NCBI GenBank assembly: GCA_010093705.1
Contig: MU006107.1
Location: 65,392-105,610 of the forward strand
Source: Patellaria atrata CBS 101060
Taxonomy: Eukaryota
Direction: 5' to 3'
DNA: 40,219 bases
How positions within the stretch are numbered: position 1 is the stretch's first letter; each line of letters begins with the position of its first letter. Positions 24,168 to 33,784 of this stretch are shown here, piece by piece. The notes under the pieces were generated by a model, which worked only from the letters and a program-made list of their open reading frames with translations, was not told the origin of the DNA and made no database searches. Position numbers and translations under genes: made by a program.

Positions 24168-26671
24168 GCGAGGAGAAGGAAAAAAAAATATGATCCTAAC
24201 TATGATATTTCCTACCTCAAATCGCCCGGCCTTTGTCGACTGAAAAACAGCACTAAAAGTGCAAACCCCCCTCTTACGCTTTACCAGCATTTGTACTATC
24301 TTAAAAAATGTTTTTCACATCATCATGTTTTTTTTGTATCATTTCCCTGGCGTTACGGGTTCGGTGTCTTCGGCATAGTGGATGGGGAAGCGATTAGGGG
24401 GTTAAAAGGCATGTTTTGTGGGCTCTAAGAAGCGTTTGTGGCTCGCGCTCGTCTTGTACTTTTCTAATATTGTAATCTGAGCAGATTACTGAATTCCTTT
24501 ATTTAATCTTCTTGTCCGTGGGTCGTTGTTACGGCGCCGGATGGTGAGTTCAATACCCGAGTTTCGATGGTTTGTTTAGTTTAGTTTAGTTAAAGATAGA
24601 GGGGATGGATAGTGAATCGATTATATTCTATGATGTGGTGTTTTAGATGTGAAGATATTGACTATTGAGTGCTATGGAGTTCTGTCTGGTTTGAGTGAAT
24701 TACATATATTCTTGTGTGAGACGGTTGTTGCTAGGTCTAACTAAGGTATGGACAGTACATGATGTCTGAATAATAATGCGCTTCACATCAGGGGTTGAGC
24801 AACGGTGAAAATGGTATTGTTTGTTAAGTATTCCGTCACTGCCTCCCCTCAACTGCCTAAATACCCCGTTCTCCCATGTCCTCCTGTACACCACTGACAG
24901 CACCAGTCTTGCCAGTGCGTCTGCGCCAATGGTTGCTATGCTCAAATTGACCTATTCGCCTATACAGAAACTGTAAGATTGAGACTGTGAGGTTTGAAGG
25001 CCCTACGGTTATTAGGTGTTTTGTACGCCTGGGAGGATTGAGGTATCCTCGAGTCTGGAAGTGCAATATTTGGGTAAGGATGAAGGGGTTAGTGTGACTG
25101 GACGTTACTTTGGTAGGATGACGGGTAGATTCATGGTCTGCTTCCAGAATGTTGTTGATGAGGTTCGGATCGGTTCGAACACGCTTATCAAATGCCACTT
25201 CGAAAGGCCGAACTTAAACCCCGAGGATTGATCCAAGTGGTTCTATACGTAGGCGACTATCGTCTTTCGGTCGTCGGAGATGAAAGGATTGGGGACCTTC
25301 GGATCCTTATCGTGGCTTGTTCGAGAGGATCAGGCGGTACATCCTCAATGTTCTCAATAAAGCTTGGGTTTTGCCTTTCAACTCAAGGTAATCGCCTCTT
25401 CCAAGGTAATTGAGACATGTCCAGGAAATTGATCCAAGTGTCGAACAAAGTCGGCTTGGAAAAAACACACGATATAGAACTCCTCTCAGGTCCTTGAGGG
25501 GGTCGAGCAAGCAACCTGAGTTACTCCCAGAAACGTGCAAGATTGAACTATCTCAAGCCCGGTAGTGGGTCGAGGAGGCATGAACTAAGTCGTATGAAAG
25601 TACGCAAAAAAGAGTCTATCTCGAACTCTGGAGGGAGCCGAGCTGCGCCGAACTGAGTCGCCCACGGTCACAGAACTGATCTCATAGCCTCGAAGGGGTC
25701 AAGCTCTCGAACTAATTCGGTCAAACAATTCACACAAAATAGAACTGACCTCAGATCCTCGGAAGAATCGAGCTCGTGAACTTAGTTGCCCAAACGACAT
25801 AACTTCTCGAACTAAGTCTCCTCGAAAGAAAGATTAGAAAAGAGACGACGGGAGTTGAATTTATTTGATGTCTGTGACGCTATGCCCTTATTGGACAGCG
25901 GGGCAAGGGGAAACCTCGGTGGCTGTTTTCCCACTAGAGCCTTTTGGGAACTCAAGGTATCAGACGCATACTCAACATTATATCCATCGTGAGTGAGTGA
26001 ATAGATGGGCATGTATCCCAAATTCAGACACGCGATCCAACCTTCAAGGTCTCCTTGCAGAGGAGAAAAGGAACGGGAAGGAATTGATTCACTGAGCCCC
26101 GGTATCTGTGCGGACTGAATACCTATCCGTGGAGATAGGTATCCAAACGAGAATTGATAGAGTACTATCTTCCACACGGAGTAGCCAATTATACTATGAA
26201 GTAACCATACGGAGTAATACTACTCTTTTACTCCTTCCTCCCTTACTTACCCTTTCCTATAGATTCTGTTTCCCCTATCTCAGATGCCGTTACTCGTCTG
26301 CTCGTACCAAGCGCTGTCAGCTCCCGCTGGTCCTTATTTCTGTGCAACGTTTGAAACTGACCTCACTCTATACGGTTAACGTTCCAGCTGGTCTTCCAGC
26401 TGGTTTTCCAGCAGATGCTCAACCCTACGGAGATGCCTCCTGTGTGGTCGCTGTTGTCTTCGAGCTTTTGTGGCGCTATTCCCTTATTGGATAGTGGGGT
26501 TAGGGCAACTAAATGGAAGCTTGTTACTCCCTTTCATCATAGCCTAAGGTAAGCATATACTAATTTGTTGCCTCCGATACAATTATATCTAAGTACGTAC
26601 TGAAACTCAAAACAACCCTGAATTTGCACCTCATTTCTCTTGACTCACTTCATAAAGCCTAACAGCAAAGT

Positions 26672-29239
26672 ATGTCTTGTCAGCATGTTAATTCTCCAGG
26701 TAAGTCTTCACTAAGCGAAATCATTACTGCACACACAACGGCATTACTTACTGTTAGCTAGATCTTCGTCCACCAAGGCCTACTCAGTCAGTCTATCGTG
26801 AAGATTGTACTCAATGCTTCAATTCTATAGTAAGCTTTTACTATCTACCCTCTATCGAATGCTCCTCACCAGCGGTATCCTAGGACGATCCGGATGGACT
26901 AGATATTTGTCTATACTGCTTCAACGGGGGCTGTCCTTCAGATCAGTCCCATGCCGTCGTCCACTATGAAACCACACACCACCCGCTCGTTCTGAACATC
27001 AAACGAACACGAAAGAGGGTAAAGCGTGATGAACCCCCCCAAAAGCTATCAAAGCTTGCCATTGCCGCCGAAACCGAAGAGGACCGCTACGATACAACGA
27101 CAGAGGTCAAATGTTACCAATGTGGGGTCCAAAACATCGATAAGGGAACAGGGAAACTCCCAGAAGTTGTGGATGCTGTTTTAAAAGCTAACACATTTGC
27201 GAGGCAAGAAGAGGTCAAGGCATGGGAGCAAGAGATGATACCGTGTGAGCACACACTTTGCTTAGAGCAACAGGCACCGATGCAGATAGAGGCTCAAAAC
27301 TTAGCAAACTGCTCAAAGTGTGATCTGAAGGAGAACTTATGGCTTTGCCTCACCTGTGGCAATCTAGGTTGCGGTCGTGCTCAGTATGGTGGCGTTGGCG
27401 GAAATGGGCACGCACTTGCACATACGGATGAGGTTCATCATCCCGTTGCTGTCAAACTCGGGTCATTGACGGCTGATGGAAATGCTGATATTTATTGCTA
27501 CTCATGCAATGAGGAAAGAGTGGATCCCGAGCTCCCTGCTCACCTGGCGCATTGGGGTATCAACATTGCGGAAAGACAGAAGACTGAAAAGAGCTTGACG
27601 GAGATGCAGATCGAGCAGAATCTCCGTTGGGAGTTTGCAATGGTTACTGAAGATGGAAAGGAGCTCCTACCCTTGTTTGGGGAAGGCTTTACTGGACTGA
27701 AGAATATGGGGAATAGCTGTTACCTCGCAAGTGTGGTGCAAAGTTTGTTCTCCATGCCCGAGTTCGTGGAGAGATACTATCATCCCAAAGATCCACCACC
27801 GCCCTCTCAAGCACCCGCTGAGGATTTGGAAACCCAGTTGCGCAAGATTGCGGACGGGCTCTTGTCTGGTCGCTATTCAAAACCCGATAGCGATTACATA
27901 ATCTCAGAGAACACAGCTGAAGTACCTCACCAAAAGGGGTTGGCTCCAGCAATGCTTAAGCACCTAATCGGTAGGGGTCATGATGAGTTCTCCACCATGC
28001 GCCAACAAGATGCTTTCGAACTTCTATTGCACCTCCTGAAGCTCATTACACGACAGCAACATCCTGCTCCGTTGAAGAATCCCGTAGACTCTTTCCGGTT
28101 CGTGATGGAGCAACGTTTGCAATGCATTTCATGTAAAAAGGTTCGCTATCGTATGGATGAGCAGGAAAACATTTCAATACCCGTACCGATCCGCCGAATG
28201 TCAAAGGAATTCCAGATGGAAGTTTCAACAGCGGATGGCAAAGAAAAGGAGAAGGAAAAGGATGAGTTTGAGCCAGTCACTCTCAAAGAGTGCCTCGACA
28301 TTTTTACTGCTGACGAAATGGTCGAATTTACGTGTCCAGCGTGCGGAGGTAAGGATGGTGCCATAAAGCGAAACGGTTTCAAGACGTTCCCTACAGTTCT
28401 TGCTATAAATGCAAGACGTTTTGAGGTTGTGGGATGGGTTCCCACGAAACAAGATGTCCCAGTCATCGTTAACGATGAGCCATTCTCATTCGATGCCTAC
28501 AAATCTCTTGGACTACGGGACGAGGAGGAGGCTTTACCCGAAGATGCTGAGCCCGCCACATCAAACAAATTTATTCCAAATGAGGCCGCTTTGTCGATGC
28601 TGGAAGCTATGGGATTCCCGAGAGTGCGGTGTGAGAAGGCGCTCCACGCAACGGGCAACTCTGATGCAGAAACGGCATCAAACTGGCTCTTCGCTCACAT
28701 GGAGGATCCAGATATTGACACACCGGTAAGCTTTGGAGGTGGGTCAAGCGCAAAACCCTCCGCGGCAATTGATCCAGAGGCAATAGAGAACTTAGGTGCT
28801 ATGGGATTCAATGCTCCTCAAGCACGACAGGCACTCAAAGAAACTGGCGGTGACATGGAACGTGCTGTCGATTGGCTCTTCAACCACCCTGATGCTGCTG
28901 GAGACTTTGGCGACGATGATGCACCCGAGACACAAGAAGAATCATCAACCAAGGAAAGACCATTGCCTGGCGACGCAACTCTACCTGCAGACTTCCAGCT
29001 ACACTCAATTATCTGCCACAAGGGGAGTTCGATTCATGCTGGGTAAGTCGTCTCGTTCATTAGATTCTGAGAGCTATCAACCTAACACTCATAGACACTA
29101 CGTGGCATTCATACGAAAGCAGCTTCCTGGTGATCCATCGCCAAGTTGGGTGTTGTTCAACGATGAGAAGGTGGCAAAGGCGGCTGATGTGGAGGAGATG
29201 AAGAAGTTTGCATATGTCTATTTCTTCAGGCGGGTCTAA
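26672..29239 (+). CDS. UBP14: Ubiquitin-specific protease 14 / isopeptidase T (USP5-like); exons 26672-26699, 26762-26829, 26884-29042, 29095-29239
   Basis: N-terminal VYREDCTQCF, ZnF-UBP (CSKCDLKENLWLCLTCGNLGCGR), Cys box GLKNMGNSCY, QQDAFE, two UBA domains (AMGF) and His box CHKGSSIHAGHYVAF...WVLFNDEKV. Confidence 0.96.
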
Positions 29240-29758
29240 TGGTGTCTATCTGCATTTGTAACTTTTATATCAAGTTCAGCATATGCATTGCGAGTGGCGT
29301 AGAGTTGGCTTTTGAAAAAAAAAGCGAAGCGAGGGGTTGGTGGGATAAATAGGTATTAGAAAGCATGAACAGGTGTAATTGGGACACGAAGATGATATAG
29401 TTGTATACACAAAAGTGTTCGACTCTATTAGGAAGTATTAAAGAAAGGAGTAAAGAATATCTCCGTCTCCGTGCTGCTCGGCTTTGATAGAAGAAAATTG
29501 CCTCTTTGGGTTTAAGGTCTGCCGTAGTTTCTATCTATGTCATACCCGAGGATCTAGCCCGCTTTGAACAACCCAATCGCAAAGAATCTTGGACCCCATC
29601 CTTCGTCACAGAAGAACACCCTCGCCCATATTTCATTCTTATCAGATTTCAACATCTACAAAAACCTAACCGCAACACATCACCCCGCCATCACAATACT
29701 ACGATTGAACGCCCAAAAATACACACTTCAAACAAATACGATATAAGGAATCGAAAGG

Positions 29759-30673
29759 ATGATGAGGAGAGCGATCACACGAGTCCCGGTGCAGGCGAGC
29801 AGAGCTCTCCGCACCACCACTGCGAGCCCGGCGATGAATGCGACGAGGACGGTGACGGTGACTGCTCAACAGACACAGAGCAGGAGGAGCTATCATGAGA
29901 AAGATAAGTCGAATTCTTTTCCTTTCGATCTCCAAAGAAGAGGTTTCGACGATGTGGCGGACGTGGCGGACGGGCGATATGTGAGAGCGAAGTTTGGCGT
30001 CTCTCTCTCTCTCTTTCTCTCTCTCGATCTCTACATCCCCCATCCCGTCTACCTGTTATACCGTGCCGTATCTCCTCCAACCTTAACAGTTTCATGTCTT
30101 TGTTTTGTCCTTTGGTCTTCCCAAACACCTTAAGCTAACACCCCCAAACTGCTCGACCACTACTCCCGCCCCCGCAACGTCGGCTCCATGCCCAAGGACG
30201 CGGCGGACGTTGGCACCGGCCTCGTCGGCGCCCCCGCCTGCGGCGACGTCATGAAGCTCCAGATCCGCGTCGACCCGGCCAGCAACACGATCGCCGACGT
30301 CAAGTTCAAGACGTTCGGCTGCGGCTCCGCCATCGCGAGCTCGAGCTACCTCACAGAACTGGTCCGCGGCATGACGCTCGAGGATGCCGGCAAGATTCGG
30401 AACACGGAGATCGCGCGGGAGCTTTGTTTGCCGCCTGTCAAGCGTGAGTTGTTGCTTTATCCTTCCTGTGTTAGCCTTTTGGTCTTTGGGAGGATGTAGG
30501 GCTGATACGAAGTCGTAGTTCACTGCTCCATGCTCGCCGAGGACGCCATCAAATCCGCCATCTCGAATTACTATTCCAAGAACCCGAAGGCGCGAAAGAC
30601 GGATCTCGGGGCCGCTGACGCCTCGATTCCGAAAGTCGAGGTCGAGACAGTTTCTGCTTCTTCGCCCGCGTAG
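29759..30673 (+). CDS. ISU1: Mitochondrial Fe-S cluster scaffold Isu1/IscU; exons 29759-29903, 30150-30443, 30519-30673
   Basis: Arg/Thr/Ala-rich presequence, then RRSYHEKV|LDHYSRPRNVGS...VGAPACGDVMKLQI...KFKTFGCGSAIASSS...ELCLPPVKLHCSMLAEDAIK (three Cys plus LPPVK). Intron 2 (30444-30518) is canonical. Intron 1 is non-canonical. Confidence 0.95.
29904..30149 (+). other. Non-canonical AT-AC intron (246 nt) with U2-type signals in ISU1
   Basis: AAA G|ATAAGTC...TAAGCTAACACCCCCAAAC|TG CTC GAC CAC. Removal restores the conserved HEK-V-LDHY. GCTAAC lies at 30134-30139 and there is no AG between it and exon 2. Confidence 0.8.
30000..30025. repeat. (CT)n microsatellite inside ISU1 intron 1
   Basis: tctctctctctctctttctctctctc. 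Confidence 0.9.
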
Positions 30674-31289
30674 ATAACGCCGGGACTGGAAATTAAAACT
30701 GTGCTTTTTTGCCGCGTTCGGCGTTCTGTGATTGTTTGGGGGGTTTGTTTGTGTGCGTTGTTAGATAGCGGGAAGGGAGGCGGGAGATAAGACTTTCGCT
30801 ATGCGATATTGTGGTTGAAGCGTTGAAATTTGAGTCTCGAGCCAATGCTTTGTGTGTTGTGCATCTCCGGGAATGGGGAGTGGTGAAAATGAAAAACCTT
30901 CCTACCTTAATGCTCCAGCAAATGGAGTAGGCTATCGTTGTATATATGTACTTCATTCTTCTATCCTCTCGGTCGACCAAATGCGTGACACCCTCGTATC
31001 GTGGTGAGATGCTCACGCCACTTTTGGGATATGAGTCTCTGGCGTGGGAACTGATTCTTGGCGGATCGGATTCCCTGATGTCGTCGGGTAGAGGTGAGCT
31101 GGTATCTGTTATTGATACCGTACAATATGCAGATTGGGGGATTTGGGTTAGATTATATCAGATCGGGTCAGATACGAATCCAGCACTCCTACCTACCTTA
31201 TCCCATACCGATCGAACAAACTCTCAATTCACCAAAAAAAAAAAAAATGCACACCACAAACCAAGGACCAAATAAACCCATTTGCGGAA

Positions 31290-31320
<31 letters not shown>
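31290..31320. repeat. (TA)n / TATG microsatellite between the convergent ISU1 and FLC genes
   Basis: atatatgtatatgtatatatatatatatata. Confidence 0.9.
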
Positions 31321-31549
31321 ATCACCCAGCTTGAGCTGCCTTATGAGCTACGGCTCCATCTACCCTTTCCACCTCACCGAAAAAAAGGAACGTCCCAGCC
31401 TCGCGGCCCACGAAAATCTTCCCACTGGCATCCCCAGCTATGCATACCAAAGCAAACAAAATAAACTAAAACGCCCGCTAAGTGACAACCGAAAATAGAC
31501 AAACGAAACCGAATCCTTCATTTTTTACAGTACACATAATCTCTCCCCC

Positions 31550-33784
31550 TTAATAACCCCTCCCGACCTCGACATCCGGCAACCTCGGCGCGCGCTCCTC
31601 ACTCCACGTCCTCCCGTGACTCAAACTCCTCGCATGGCTCTCGCTCCTGCCGTGTCCCAGACTCGCGGAATCGTTCAGCAGCGCCGTCCGACTGGGACTG
31701 TCGTTCCTATGACCGCGGCTGAAGCGGTTGGTGTGCGTGATATTGTCGTTTAGCGGGATGGGGTCGTACTGGCCCATTTGGGGGTCTGCGCTCTTGTACG
31801 CGGTGGGGTCCATGAGGAGGGAGTTGCGGGCATCGAGGGGGGTGAGGGTGTCGAGGTCGCGGTTGAGTTTTTCTAATGGTTGGGAGTTAGTATGATTGTT
31901 TTTTTTTTCTTGGGGGGGGGGGGGGGGTGGGGACGTACCAGCCTCCTTCCTCTTCTTACGGTGGGGATTAGCGCGGCAACAGACGACGATGGCATTGACA
32001 GCGATGAGGATGGCGAGGAGACCCGTCAACACTGCTTGTAGGACGATGAGGACGACGCCAGTGATGGTCTGTGTGCTCTGCGCGACGCCGAGTTCCTCCA
32101 CGAAGACGAGGACGCAGACGACGGAGAGCACACGGACGACTTGGATGGTGATGTTGATCCAGTTACCGGATTTGAGGGAGAAGGGGCGGACCCAGAGGAG
32201 CAGCAGGAGGAGAAGGGATTCGATGATGAGTTGACCGCCGGCTTGAACGAGGCCGTGACCGCTGGCACCGGCGATGATACAACCTTTGGCGAACATGTAG
32301 ACGATGACTGGGATGAAGATCCACCAGTAACTCTGCTTGTAGTTTTCGTAGAAGATGCTGTATTTTCTCCATGTTTCCTTGTCCTCGAACAGAGCGTGAG
32401 CGTCACCTTCTACTTTTTTGAACTTGCTGGCGACTTGCCAAATCTTGAAGGTAAAATAACCAAGAACGGCGGTAAAGAGAGCTAAGGTAACACCGGCCAA
32501 TATCTTAGCACCCCAGGAGTCACCGTTCGTGAATTGATAGATGCACCAAAGCGTCCAGATGCCATAAAGTAAGAGAATCAGATTGGTGATTGTTTTGGCC
32601 ATGGTCCACCAGTATCGTTTCCTAAATCCAGTCAGGCTCTTAGGAAAACTACCAAAGAGAGCCCATCCTTCTAGAATGACTTTGAACAGAAGGATTCCGA
32701 CAGCGATGGAAGCAACAATAATGGCGAAAACAAGAAGAATGGTCATGAATGTGTTAGCTTGAGGGATCGATAGTTCTTCAACGTAAGCCTGGATGCCTTC
32801 CACATAGTGCATAACTTTACTGTCACTGTTCGTCGTCGAGTTCGCGGAACCAATGGTTGTCCCATTAATCGTAGTAGTAAAGTCGCGAGCATACAGAAGG
32901 AATTCGTCGAAACTGCGTTTGTTAAGCGTACGAGCCTGATGTACGAGAGTTGCATTTCGAAGGAAGTCTACATTAGCCTCTGTGAGATTGCCACCTGTAG
33001 ATTTCCTGAATGAGTCGATGGATCGTTGCATGCCATCCCATTCGAATAGACCAGTGCTGAACGCGAAGTTCTTGGCAAAGTTCCTGTAAACTTGGGGGTA
33101 TTGAACGCTGAGCATCCCATTCATAGCCATACTCTGGAACCAGCCTAAACACTCTCCGAAGGTAGGACTAGGGGAAGCGGCTCCGGGATGACCACCGGCA
33201 GCTAATGCGGACAGACCAGAAAGAATAAGAGCACCACCAACTATACCACCAGCAGCATAAGAAACGGCCGGTACAGATGTTGTCTTCCCGTTCTTGACCA
33301 CAGACTCGACACAAGCAACTGGATCATCGCCACCATCAACTGGAAGTAGTTCCATTTTTGCTGTACCATCTATATCCGGGATATTGAAGGCGATATCTGG
33401 AATCTGTGATGCAAACTCGTTCGGAATATCCACATCACCAGCAGAGGCAAACTCGCCAGAAGGAACGGGACATAGTTGTGGGAACGATGTCTCTTCGTCA
33501 CAGGGATTAAACTCTTTCGTGTAGAGTTCTCTTCCATAAGCAAATGCGGTAAGTTTTGCCTTGACCTTCACTTCTCTTGCGCTTGATCCGGCAACATCAA
33601 AGGTCACTCTGTTGGTTCGTCTGTCGAATTTTATATTCATCCTCTGAATTTGAATATCCGAGTTGCTAGAGCACATGCTGAAGCCACTGGTTTCAAGAAT
33701 ATCACCGGCCAGAGCTGTAAGCGGAAGTGTTCCTAGCAATAACAAAGGGGCAAACGTTGCCCGTAATCGTGAAGAGAGATGCAT
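31550..33784 (-). CDS. TRP-like / flavin carrier (FLC/Pkd2) family membrane protein; exons 33784-31939, 31872-31550
   Basis: Signal peptide, then an ML-like TRP_N domain (GDILETSGFSMC...TFDVAGSS...FNPC...QLCPVPSG...AFNIPDIDG...VACVES..NGKT), WFQSMAMNGMLSVQYPQVYRNFAKNFAFSTGL and multiple transmembrane helices. A 66-nt GTACGT...TACTAAC...TAG intron at 31938-31873 is read through in frame by the ORF track. Confidence 0.9.
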   Translation of the reverse strand: MHLSSRLRATFAPLLLLGTLPLTALAGDILETSGFSMCSSNSDIQIQRMNIKFDRRTNRVTFDVAGSSAREVKVKAKLTAFAYGRELYTKEFNPCDEETSFPQLCPVPSGEFASAGDVDIPNEFASQIPDIAFNIPDIDGTAKMELLPVDGGDDPVACVESVVKNGKTTSVPAVSYAAGGIVGGALILSGLSALAAGGHPGAASPSPTFGECLGWFQSMAMNGMLSVQYPQVYRNFAKNFAFSTGLFEWDGMQRSIDSFRKSTGGNLTEANVDFLRNATLVHQARTLNKRSFDEFLLYARDFTTTINGTTIGSANSTTNSDSKVMHYVEGIQAYVEELSIPQANTFMTILLVFAIIVASIAVGILLFKVILEGWALFGSFPKSLTGFRKRYWWTMAKTITNLILLLYGIWTLWCIYQFTNGDSWGAKILAGVTLALFTAVLGYFTFKIWQVASKFKKVEGDAHALFEDKETWRKYSIFYENYKQSYWWIFIPVIVYMFAKGCIIAGASGHGLVQAGGQLIIESLLLLLLLWVRPFSLKSGNWINITIQVVRVLSVVCVLVFVEELGVAQSTQTITGVVLIVLQAVLTGLLAILIAVNAIVVCCRANPHRKKRKEAGTSPPPPPPQEKKNNHTNSQPLEKLNRDLDTLTPLDARNSLLMDPTAYKSADPQMGQYDPIPLNDNITHTNRFSRGHRNDSPSRTALLNDSASLGHGRSESHARSLSHGRTWSEERAPRLPDVEVGRGY
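31912..31927. repeat. G16 homopolymer (C16 on the FLC sense strand) inside the FLC intron
   Basis: Run of 16 G followed by TGGGG. Confidence 0.9.

Follow-up and report, generated by a model that had tools for sequence, protein, structure and literature searches.

The window analyzed here, i.e., a stretch of 40,219 nucleotides from contig MU006107.1 of Patellaria atrata CBS 101060, carries on its forward strand a three-exon gene for the Fe-S scaffold protein ISU1. Exon 1 (29759..29903, + strand), which is open from the ATG at 29759, encodes the mitochondrial presequence and the YHEK motif (MMRR...SRRSYHEK) and ends with TAT CAT GAG AAA G at 29903, the final G being the first base of a Val codon. 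Exon 2 (30150..30443, + strand) starts with TG CTC GAC CAC TAC at 30150 and encodes the IscU core, including two Cys ligands and LPPVK; it is matched by the Pfam NifU_N family (PF01592) with an E-value of 1.4e-37 and a score of 129.2 bits against a cut-off of 22. Since this match opens at profile position 7, the first profile positions must be supplied by exon 1. Exons 2 and 3 are separated by a canonical intron of 75 nt (intron 2, 30444..30518, + strand; GTGAGT...CTGAT...TAG), which is skipped by one contig (depth 2) of run X3, derived from a relative, i.e., another organism. Exon 3 (30519..30673, + strand) reads LHCSMLAEDA... up to the stop codon TAG at 30671-30673 and covers NifU_N positions 104-125. 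Together, the three exons form a coding sequence of 594 nt for a protein of 197 aa that contains GAPACGD, FGCGSAIA, and LHCSML, which we take to be the cysteine ligand motifs, and LPPVK, presumably the chaperone motif. This product shares 69-77% identity over its full length with seven named fungal Isu1 models. The upstream neighbor of the gene encodes a UBP14-like ubiquitin hydrolase and the downstream neighbor, on the opposite strand, a TRP/Flc-type channel; both are ordinary genes. The TRP protein is 97% identical, over 99% of its length, to a protein recorded for P. atrata CBS 101060, the second-best match reaching 65%. The host had been recognized from the letters as an ascomycete of the Pezizomycotina, in agreement with the lineage of P. 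atrata, which places it in the Dothideomycetes.

The intron between exons 1 and 2 (29904..30149, + strand, 246 nt, phase 1) begins with AT and ends with AC. Its 5' splice site, ATAAGT (29904..29909, + strand), is preceded by the exonic bases AAG, and the A, T, A, G, and T of this site are invariant in an alignment of four orthologous introns (alignment A1). The putative branch site GCTAAC (30134..30139, + strand) would supply A30138 as the branch nucleotide, at a distance of 11 nt from the end of the intron, and is followed by 10 bases, ACCCCCAAAC, up to the last intron base at 30149. No AG occurs between the branch site and the 3' end, and the terminal AC (30148..30149, + strand) is found in 4/4 genomic loci. 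The exon ends, the ATAAGT donor, GCTAAC with its 10 nt, the final AC, and the length of 246 nt had all been given in the original prediction and are correct on re-reading. The intron had also been described as 3-5 times longer than most other introns here; this agrees with the 75 nt of intron 2 and the approximately 66 nt of an intron in a neighboring gene, a comparison comprising two introns only. Simple repeats occupy part of the intron (29954..30032, unstranded), namely, 2.7 copies of GTGGCGGAC (29954-29976) and (TC)13, also readable as a 12-nt unit (30000-30032). They are absent from the orthologous introns and make up much of the extra length. As judged from this comparison, the great length would be a feature of P. 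atrata and not of the ISU1 AT-AC intron as such.

All GT/GC-AG, AT-AC, AT-AG, and GT-AC pairs that keep an open frame from exon 1 to exon 2 were enumerated. Among these frame-keeping pairs, the conserved sequence YHEKVLDHY is obtained only from 29904/30149, thus bearing out the earlier statement that no strong GT/AG pair restores the frame. The canonical pairs that use the AG at 30133-30134 place this AG inside the branch site, give a product reading ...NTPKLLDHY, and mostly depend on weak GC donors, while those that use the AG at 30195-30196 delete the conserved LDHYSRPRNVGSMPK. The combination of the GTGAGA donor at 29981 with the AG at 30196 costs 15 conserved residues. Likewise rejected was AT(29904)-AG(30134), which is in frame with the product YHEKANTPKLLDHY; its AG again falls within the branch-site sequence, and an A as the first base requires C as the last.

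The same junction is already present in a public protein record. For P. atrata CBS 101060, the public ISU1 model (P0241, JGI model M501DRAFT_997730, 164 aa) follows exons 1 and 2 in its residues 1-146, with their junction placed exactly at 29903/30150; residues 1-48 are identical to the exon 1 product, and the exon 2 product is 100% identical as well. The record is without a description of the intron as AT-AC. Intron 2, on the other hand, is retained in P0241, which reads through to a stop and thereby loses the third cysteine motif. We know of no standard GT-AG-only predictor that produces an AT-AC junction; thus, transcript evidence probably underlies the junction of P0241.

Conservation at the level of genomic loci was explored by scanning metagenome contigs with exon 2, from which 80 loci were kept: 74 with bacterial-type contiguous starts and 6 of fungal type. 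The fungal loci comprise three intron-free, full-length, transcript-like sequences, which read ...YHEKVLDHY..., and three unspliced genomic loci (L002, L003, and L006), and in 3/3 of the latter an AT...AC intron follows the same Val-codon G in phase 1. The intron of L002 (105 nt) displays ATAAGT, GCTAAC, and a terminal CAC, with CTAAC 12 nt from the end; that of L003 (128 nt) displays ATAAGT, ACTAAC, and AAC, with CTAAC 11 nt from the end; and that of L006 (90 nt) displays ATACGT, GCTAAC, and GCAC, with CTAAC 21 nt from the end. In L006, an in-frame AG sits 6 nt upstream of the AC and is an alternative candidate 3' site. The nearest models to L003 are those of Alectoria sarmentosa and Pseudevernia consocians, and those to L002 belong to other lichen fungi (Icmadophila, Diploschistes, and Xylographa). 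L006 is more divergent and Pezizomycotina-like, with one extra GT-AG intron; its nearest named proteins are two Pezizomycetes models with 81-82% identity over 137-138 residues. The original prediction is borne out by this comparison of ATAAGT and AC between HEK and V in relatives, which gives AT...AC in all three loci, with ATAAGT in two of them and ATACGT in one. The recurrence of AT...AC at the same site in three of three independent unspliced loci lies far beyond chance.

Public proteins provide a second, indirect view of the same bases. The 240 proteins listed in searches with exon 2 comprise 156 with the proper junction, 8 of non-fungal types, and 76 that are mis-modelled or unspliced. 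The 156 proper-junction proteins are silent on whether their genes contain an AT-AC intron, a GT-AG intron, or none. The 76 others, i.e., 76 of the 232 fungal-type ISU1 entries examined, are wrong at the AT-AC site and read into the intron, and were thus used as a read-out of the genomic bases. The earlier expectation that standard predictors would mis-annotate the intron therefore holds for these entries but fails for P. atrata itself, whose own model, P0241, has the right junction.

On the 5' side, 53 of these proteins are readable, 21 in frame as YHEK-D (GAY) and 32 in a shifted frame that starts at the ATG inside CATGAR and reads M-R/K-K-I/M (ATN). Since all 53 readable 5' ends correspond to GAY or ATN, intron position +1 is A, and the 32 shifted reads indicate that position +2 is T. 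The second residues after the 5' site are K, T, E, and M in frame and, in the shifted frame, S, R, and C following I, or M-S; these agree with ATAAGT, ATACGT, ATGAGT, and ATATGT, i.e., the usual fungal donor variants in which the first G is replaced by A. On the 3' side, L stands in place of the mature V in 74/74 readable proteins, which implies a C or T, and never a G, as the final base of the intron; the residue before this L (S, L, P, A, V, K, or T) allows for a codon with A in the third position.

The named carriers of this signature include, in the Dothideomycetes, Glonium stellatum and Coniosporium apollinis (lineage checked) and Westerdykella ornata, which we assume to belong to the same class. 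Xylographa carneopallida (lineage checked) represents the Lecanoromycetes, in which Pycnora praestabilis, Pseudevernia consocians, Alectoria sarmentosa, Icmadophila ericetorum, and Heterodermia, all further carriers, are presumably to be placed as well. Geoglossum umbratile and Trichoglossum hirsutum represent the Geoglossomycetes (lineage checked for Geoglossum), and Sarcosagium campestre is a carrier of uncertain placement (incertae sedis). Close relatives of the carriers reveal the spliced state. P0087, an intron-free ORF of 191 residues on Logan contigs, has the YHEKV junction and falls into one 90% cluster with the proteins of Usnea florida and Cornicularia normoerica. In its C-terminal part, it shares 97% identity with those models of Pseudevernia and Alectoria that display the AT..AC signature. 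P0094 and P0096, from short JGI contigs, likewise have the proper junction, and their C-terminal part is 97-99% identical to the mis-modelled Glonium protein. These sequences indicate that close relatives of the carriers, which we take to share a family with them by taxonomy, splice precisely between HEK and V.

Sequencing error, which had been considered unlikely, is excluded because the AT-AC ends are conserved in other loci and in public proteins. The AT-AC intron of ISU1 is inherited and common to many fungi, not unique to P. atrata. Taken together, a genuine intron that is spliced at 29903/30150 by the ordinary U2-type spliceosome, despite its AT-AC ends, is very probably present in ISU1. 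Its 5' site matches /ATAAGT, the consensus, described as very strong, of AT-AC introns of the U2 type (PMC5029451), as distinct from /ATATCCTT of U12-type introns. Together with CTAAC 11 nt from the end, this supports the earlier reading of the locus as a real AT-AC intron with major-spliceosome signals. We infer, with good support from these signals, that the major spliceosome is used, presumably in a constitutive manner.

A plausible course of the reaction can be proposed. All signals except the two terminal bases, i.e., the exonic AAG, AUAAGU, and CUAAC 11 nt from the end, are at the fungal consensus, so that recognition by U1 and U6 as well as branching could proceed. For the second step, a compatible A-C pair would take the place of the usual non-Watson-Crick contact made by the first and the last G. 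In yeast and human U2-type introns, a first-base change from G to A is rescued by a last-base change from G to C, a rescue described in PMC1557818 as 'less efficient'; the ISU1 intron may thus be spliced with reduced efficiency. The AT-AC state is inherited and occupies one phase-1 position across Dothideomycetes, Lecanoromycetes, Geoglossomycetes, and a divergent Pezizomycotina-like contig. It persists probably because a reversion at a single end would cripple the splicing of an essential gene, i.e., a two-step barrier to reversion probably keeps the AT-AC ends in place.

The origin of this state is open to a further speculation, namely, that the intron descends from an ancestral AT-AC intron of the U12 type, as a relic that outlived the minor spliceosome when the latter was lost in Dikarya. 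Its 5' and branch sites would have been converted to the U2 type while the terminal bases were kept, frozen since the origin of Pezizomycotina as single-end reversions would be lethal. We regard this history as unlikely; if it is true, a U12-type intron (/ATATCC...) would be expected at the same phase-1 site of ISU1 in fungi that have a minor spliceosome.

According to the original prediction, the AT-AC ends would deliberately slow splicing, and intron removal would act as a regulated, possibly iron-responsive, checkpoint on the production of Isu1. The conservation of AT-AC in an essential gene, over three classes or more, is in line with this proposal, as are the location of the intron between the presequence and the domain and the lower efficiency of the first-base A/last-base C rescue relative to GT-AG (PMC1557818). 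However, the two-step barrier to reversion explains the conservation equally well, and the splice signals that remain match the consensus, a pattern suggestive of compensation in favor of efficiency and not of weakening. The four orthologous introns share their splice signals alone, with conservation in alignment A1 confined to the exon ends and splice sites and no conserved internal element, and their length is not conserved (90, 105, 128, and 246 nt), the excess in P. atrata being simple repeats. The fold of the intron is unremarkable, with a z-score of -0.22, and 78 of 200 shuffles fold as well. In P0241, moreover, it is the AT-AC intron that is removed and intron 2 that is retained. The Rfam search of the window, including the intron, returned no family (0 matches). 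In view of the variable length, the ordinary fold, and the lack of a conserved element in the alignment, the inefficient, iron-responsive checkpoint found no support, and we consider a regulatory function of this kind very improbable.

Constitutive removal by the major spliceosome, which we favor, must also be weighed against the reading that the locus is a pseudogene or an assembly error, or that splicing of the mRNA occurs at a different, canonical junction. Artefacts are frequent among non-canonical ends, and AT(29904)-AG(30134) likewise keeps the frame. However, every exon has an open frame, the full set of catalytic motifs is present, and identical ends recur in independent loci and in dozens of public ORFs. 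No frame-keeping GT/GC-AG pair spares the conserved residues, and the AG at 30133-30134 falls within the branch site. The contigs of runs X1 and X2, which behave as DNA, span 25000-31927 with 0 differences, an agreement that is not independent support since these runs possibly derive from the same sample as the assembly. Among the X1/X2 matches listed on the ISU1 exons, there is no sign of a second fungal ISU1 copy; the sole other contig among them, with a word depth of 12-19, aligns over 54 nt with 5 differences, beyond which it is unlike the gene; it looks like IscU of another organism. The matches of contigs from X3 and X4, which belong to another organism, are confined to parts of exons 2 and 3, and no contig of the four runs joins exon 1 to exon 2 across the AT-AC intron. 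An artefact or a hidden canonical junction is accordingly regarded as extremely unlikely.

Removal as a U12-type intron by a minor spliceosome retained in the lineage, to which the AT-AC ends and one internal CCTTAAC (near 30081-30087) resembling the U12 branch consensus would point, has next to no probability: a U12-type branch site should stand close to the 3' end, and this sole CCTTAAC lies 62 nt from it and is missing from L002, L003, and L006; no TCCTTAAC-like branch site was found near the 3' end; a U2-type CTAAC precedes the intron end by 11 nt in P. atrata and by 11-21 nt in the other loci; no snRNA gene lies within the window (Rfam search, 0 matches); the 5' site ATAAGTCG has just its first three bases (ATA) in common with /ATATCCTT; and surveys (PMC10639083 and PMC2846911) find no convincing minor introns in Ascomycota, most minor snRNAs having been lost. 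The absence of U12 signals from their places had been pointed out before and is thus upheld, with ATAAGT differing from the U12-type donor and CCTTAAC being misplaced and non-conserved.

The ISU1 intron has several implications. For annotation, wrong ISU1 models, including named ones of lichen fungi and Dothideomycetes, lack the presequence or the YHEKV with which the domain begins, and we propose that gene predictors for Pezizomycotina should permit /ATAAGT...AC. For the study of splicing, the intron would be a natural and deeply conserved AT-AC substrate and, possibly, an in vivo system for the contact between the first and the last base. For evolution, it may serve as an example of a compensated double change that has been locked in for a very long time. 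On the regulation of Fe-S biogenesis, the present evidence on the ISU1 intron says nothing.

Several known systems resemble the ISU1 intron in part. Type II AT-AC introns are rare, accounting for 24 of 608,562 U2-type introns from five species of animals and plants, and some xylanase genes of filamentous fungi have been hypothesized to contain them (PMC1557818). The animal representatives described there, such as those in human SCN4A, SCN5A, and TAF2, share with the ISU1 intron the AT-AC ends, a U2-type 5' site, conservation among orthologs, and rarity. In contrast to these animal introns, the ISU1 case is fungal, occurs in a lineage reportedly without a minor spliceosome, and has CTAAC close to the 3' end. 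Moreover, spliceosome dependence has been established experimentally for SCN4A and SCN5A (PMC1557818), whereas for ISU1 it is deduced from sequence. Double mutants with first-base A and last-base C, engineered in introns of yeast and human (Parker and Siliciano 1993, among others, as cited in PMC1557818 and PMC5029451), have the same terminal bases and are spliced by the major spliceosome, which provides a mechanistic rationale for the second step in the ISU1 intron. However, these mutants are less efficient laboratory constructs, while the ISU1 intron is natural, belongs to an essential gene, and has been kept across classes.

Among fungi, annotated AT-AC introns are rare, according to PMC7072748. 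AT-AC ends were reported for 69 of 14,305 junctions in Trichoderma longibrachiatum (PMC4324775) and for two genes of Fusarium graminearum, FGSG_08743 and FGSG_10073 (PMC3577648, supplement file 4). These junctions demonstrate, as proposed for ISU1, that AT-AC introns are spliced in filamentous ascomycetes. The accessible text of neither source names ISU1 or reports conservation, and both Fusarium genes, with a CDS of 210 and 786 nt, are not ISU1-like by length. FGSG_08743 is mentioned by no other paper in the literature searched. The nested intron of S. cerevisiae RPL30 is another fungal example of AT-AC ends, from an organism that lacks a minor spliceosome; however, as described in PMC5029451, it is a side product of 1-2% with a non-consensus 5' site and an unclear mechanism. 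Unlike RPL30, the ISU1 intron has the consensus /ATAAGT, and its removal is required for the protein. With U12-type AT-AC introns, it has the terminal dinucleotides alone in common, /ATATCCTT and TCCTTAAC being absent. No description of an AT-AC intron in ISU1 was found in the literature searched, the coverage of which did not extend to subscription journals. By its ends and signals, the ISU1 intron would thus join a known class, i.e., the type II AT-AC introns.

The public protein model of P. atrata ISU1 (P0241, 164 aa) translates through the canonical 75-nt second intron (window 30444–30518) up to a stop, and because of this read-through it lacks the LHCSMLAEDA segment, which carries the third cysteine motif. 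Correctly modelled, the ISU1 product should comprise 197 aa. Were the AT-AC intron retained, the exon 1 frame would continue into the intron (window 29904–30133) for 76 further open codons before TAA at 30131–30133, and such a transcript would encode a 124-residue product devoid of the IscU domain.

The ISU1 promoter contains a single CCAAT box (window 29573–29577), located 182 nt upstream of the start codon. As one such pentamer is about the number expected by chance in this promoter, the box permits no inference on control by CBC/HapX.

Among the contigs of the sequencing runs, a 9019-nt contig from X1 and X2, both of which behave as DNA, matches exon 2 over 54 nt (window 30212–30265) with 5 differences, after which the sequence diverges. 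Its word depth is 12–19, compared with 306–414 for the main contigs of these runs, and it probably represents IscU from a different organism in the sequenced sample. In all four runs, the summed depth is very high and loose ends are numerous at a short T-rich/G-rich low-complexity stretch (window 31893–31932), which behaves as a simple repeat common to many contigs. Downstream of ISU1, a TRP/Flc-type channel gene occupies a single long open frame on the minus strand (window 31553–33784). The alignment of its public model (P0121, 722 aa) with this frame spans 744 columns, which suggests that the gene harbors one in-frame intron of about 66 nt.

In L006, a divergent fungal ISU1 locus from a metagenome contig, the AT-AC intron (L006:1409–1498) has ATACGT...AC ends, and an in-frame AG that precedes the terminal AC by 6 nt constitutes a candidate alternative 3′ site. 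The GAPAC|GD motif of this orthologue is interrupted by an extra GT-AG intron.
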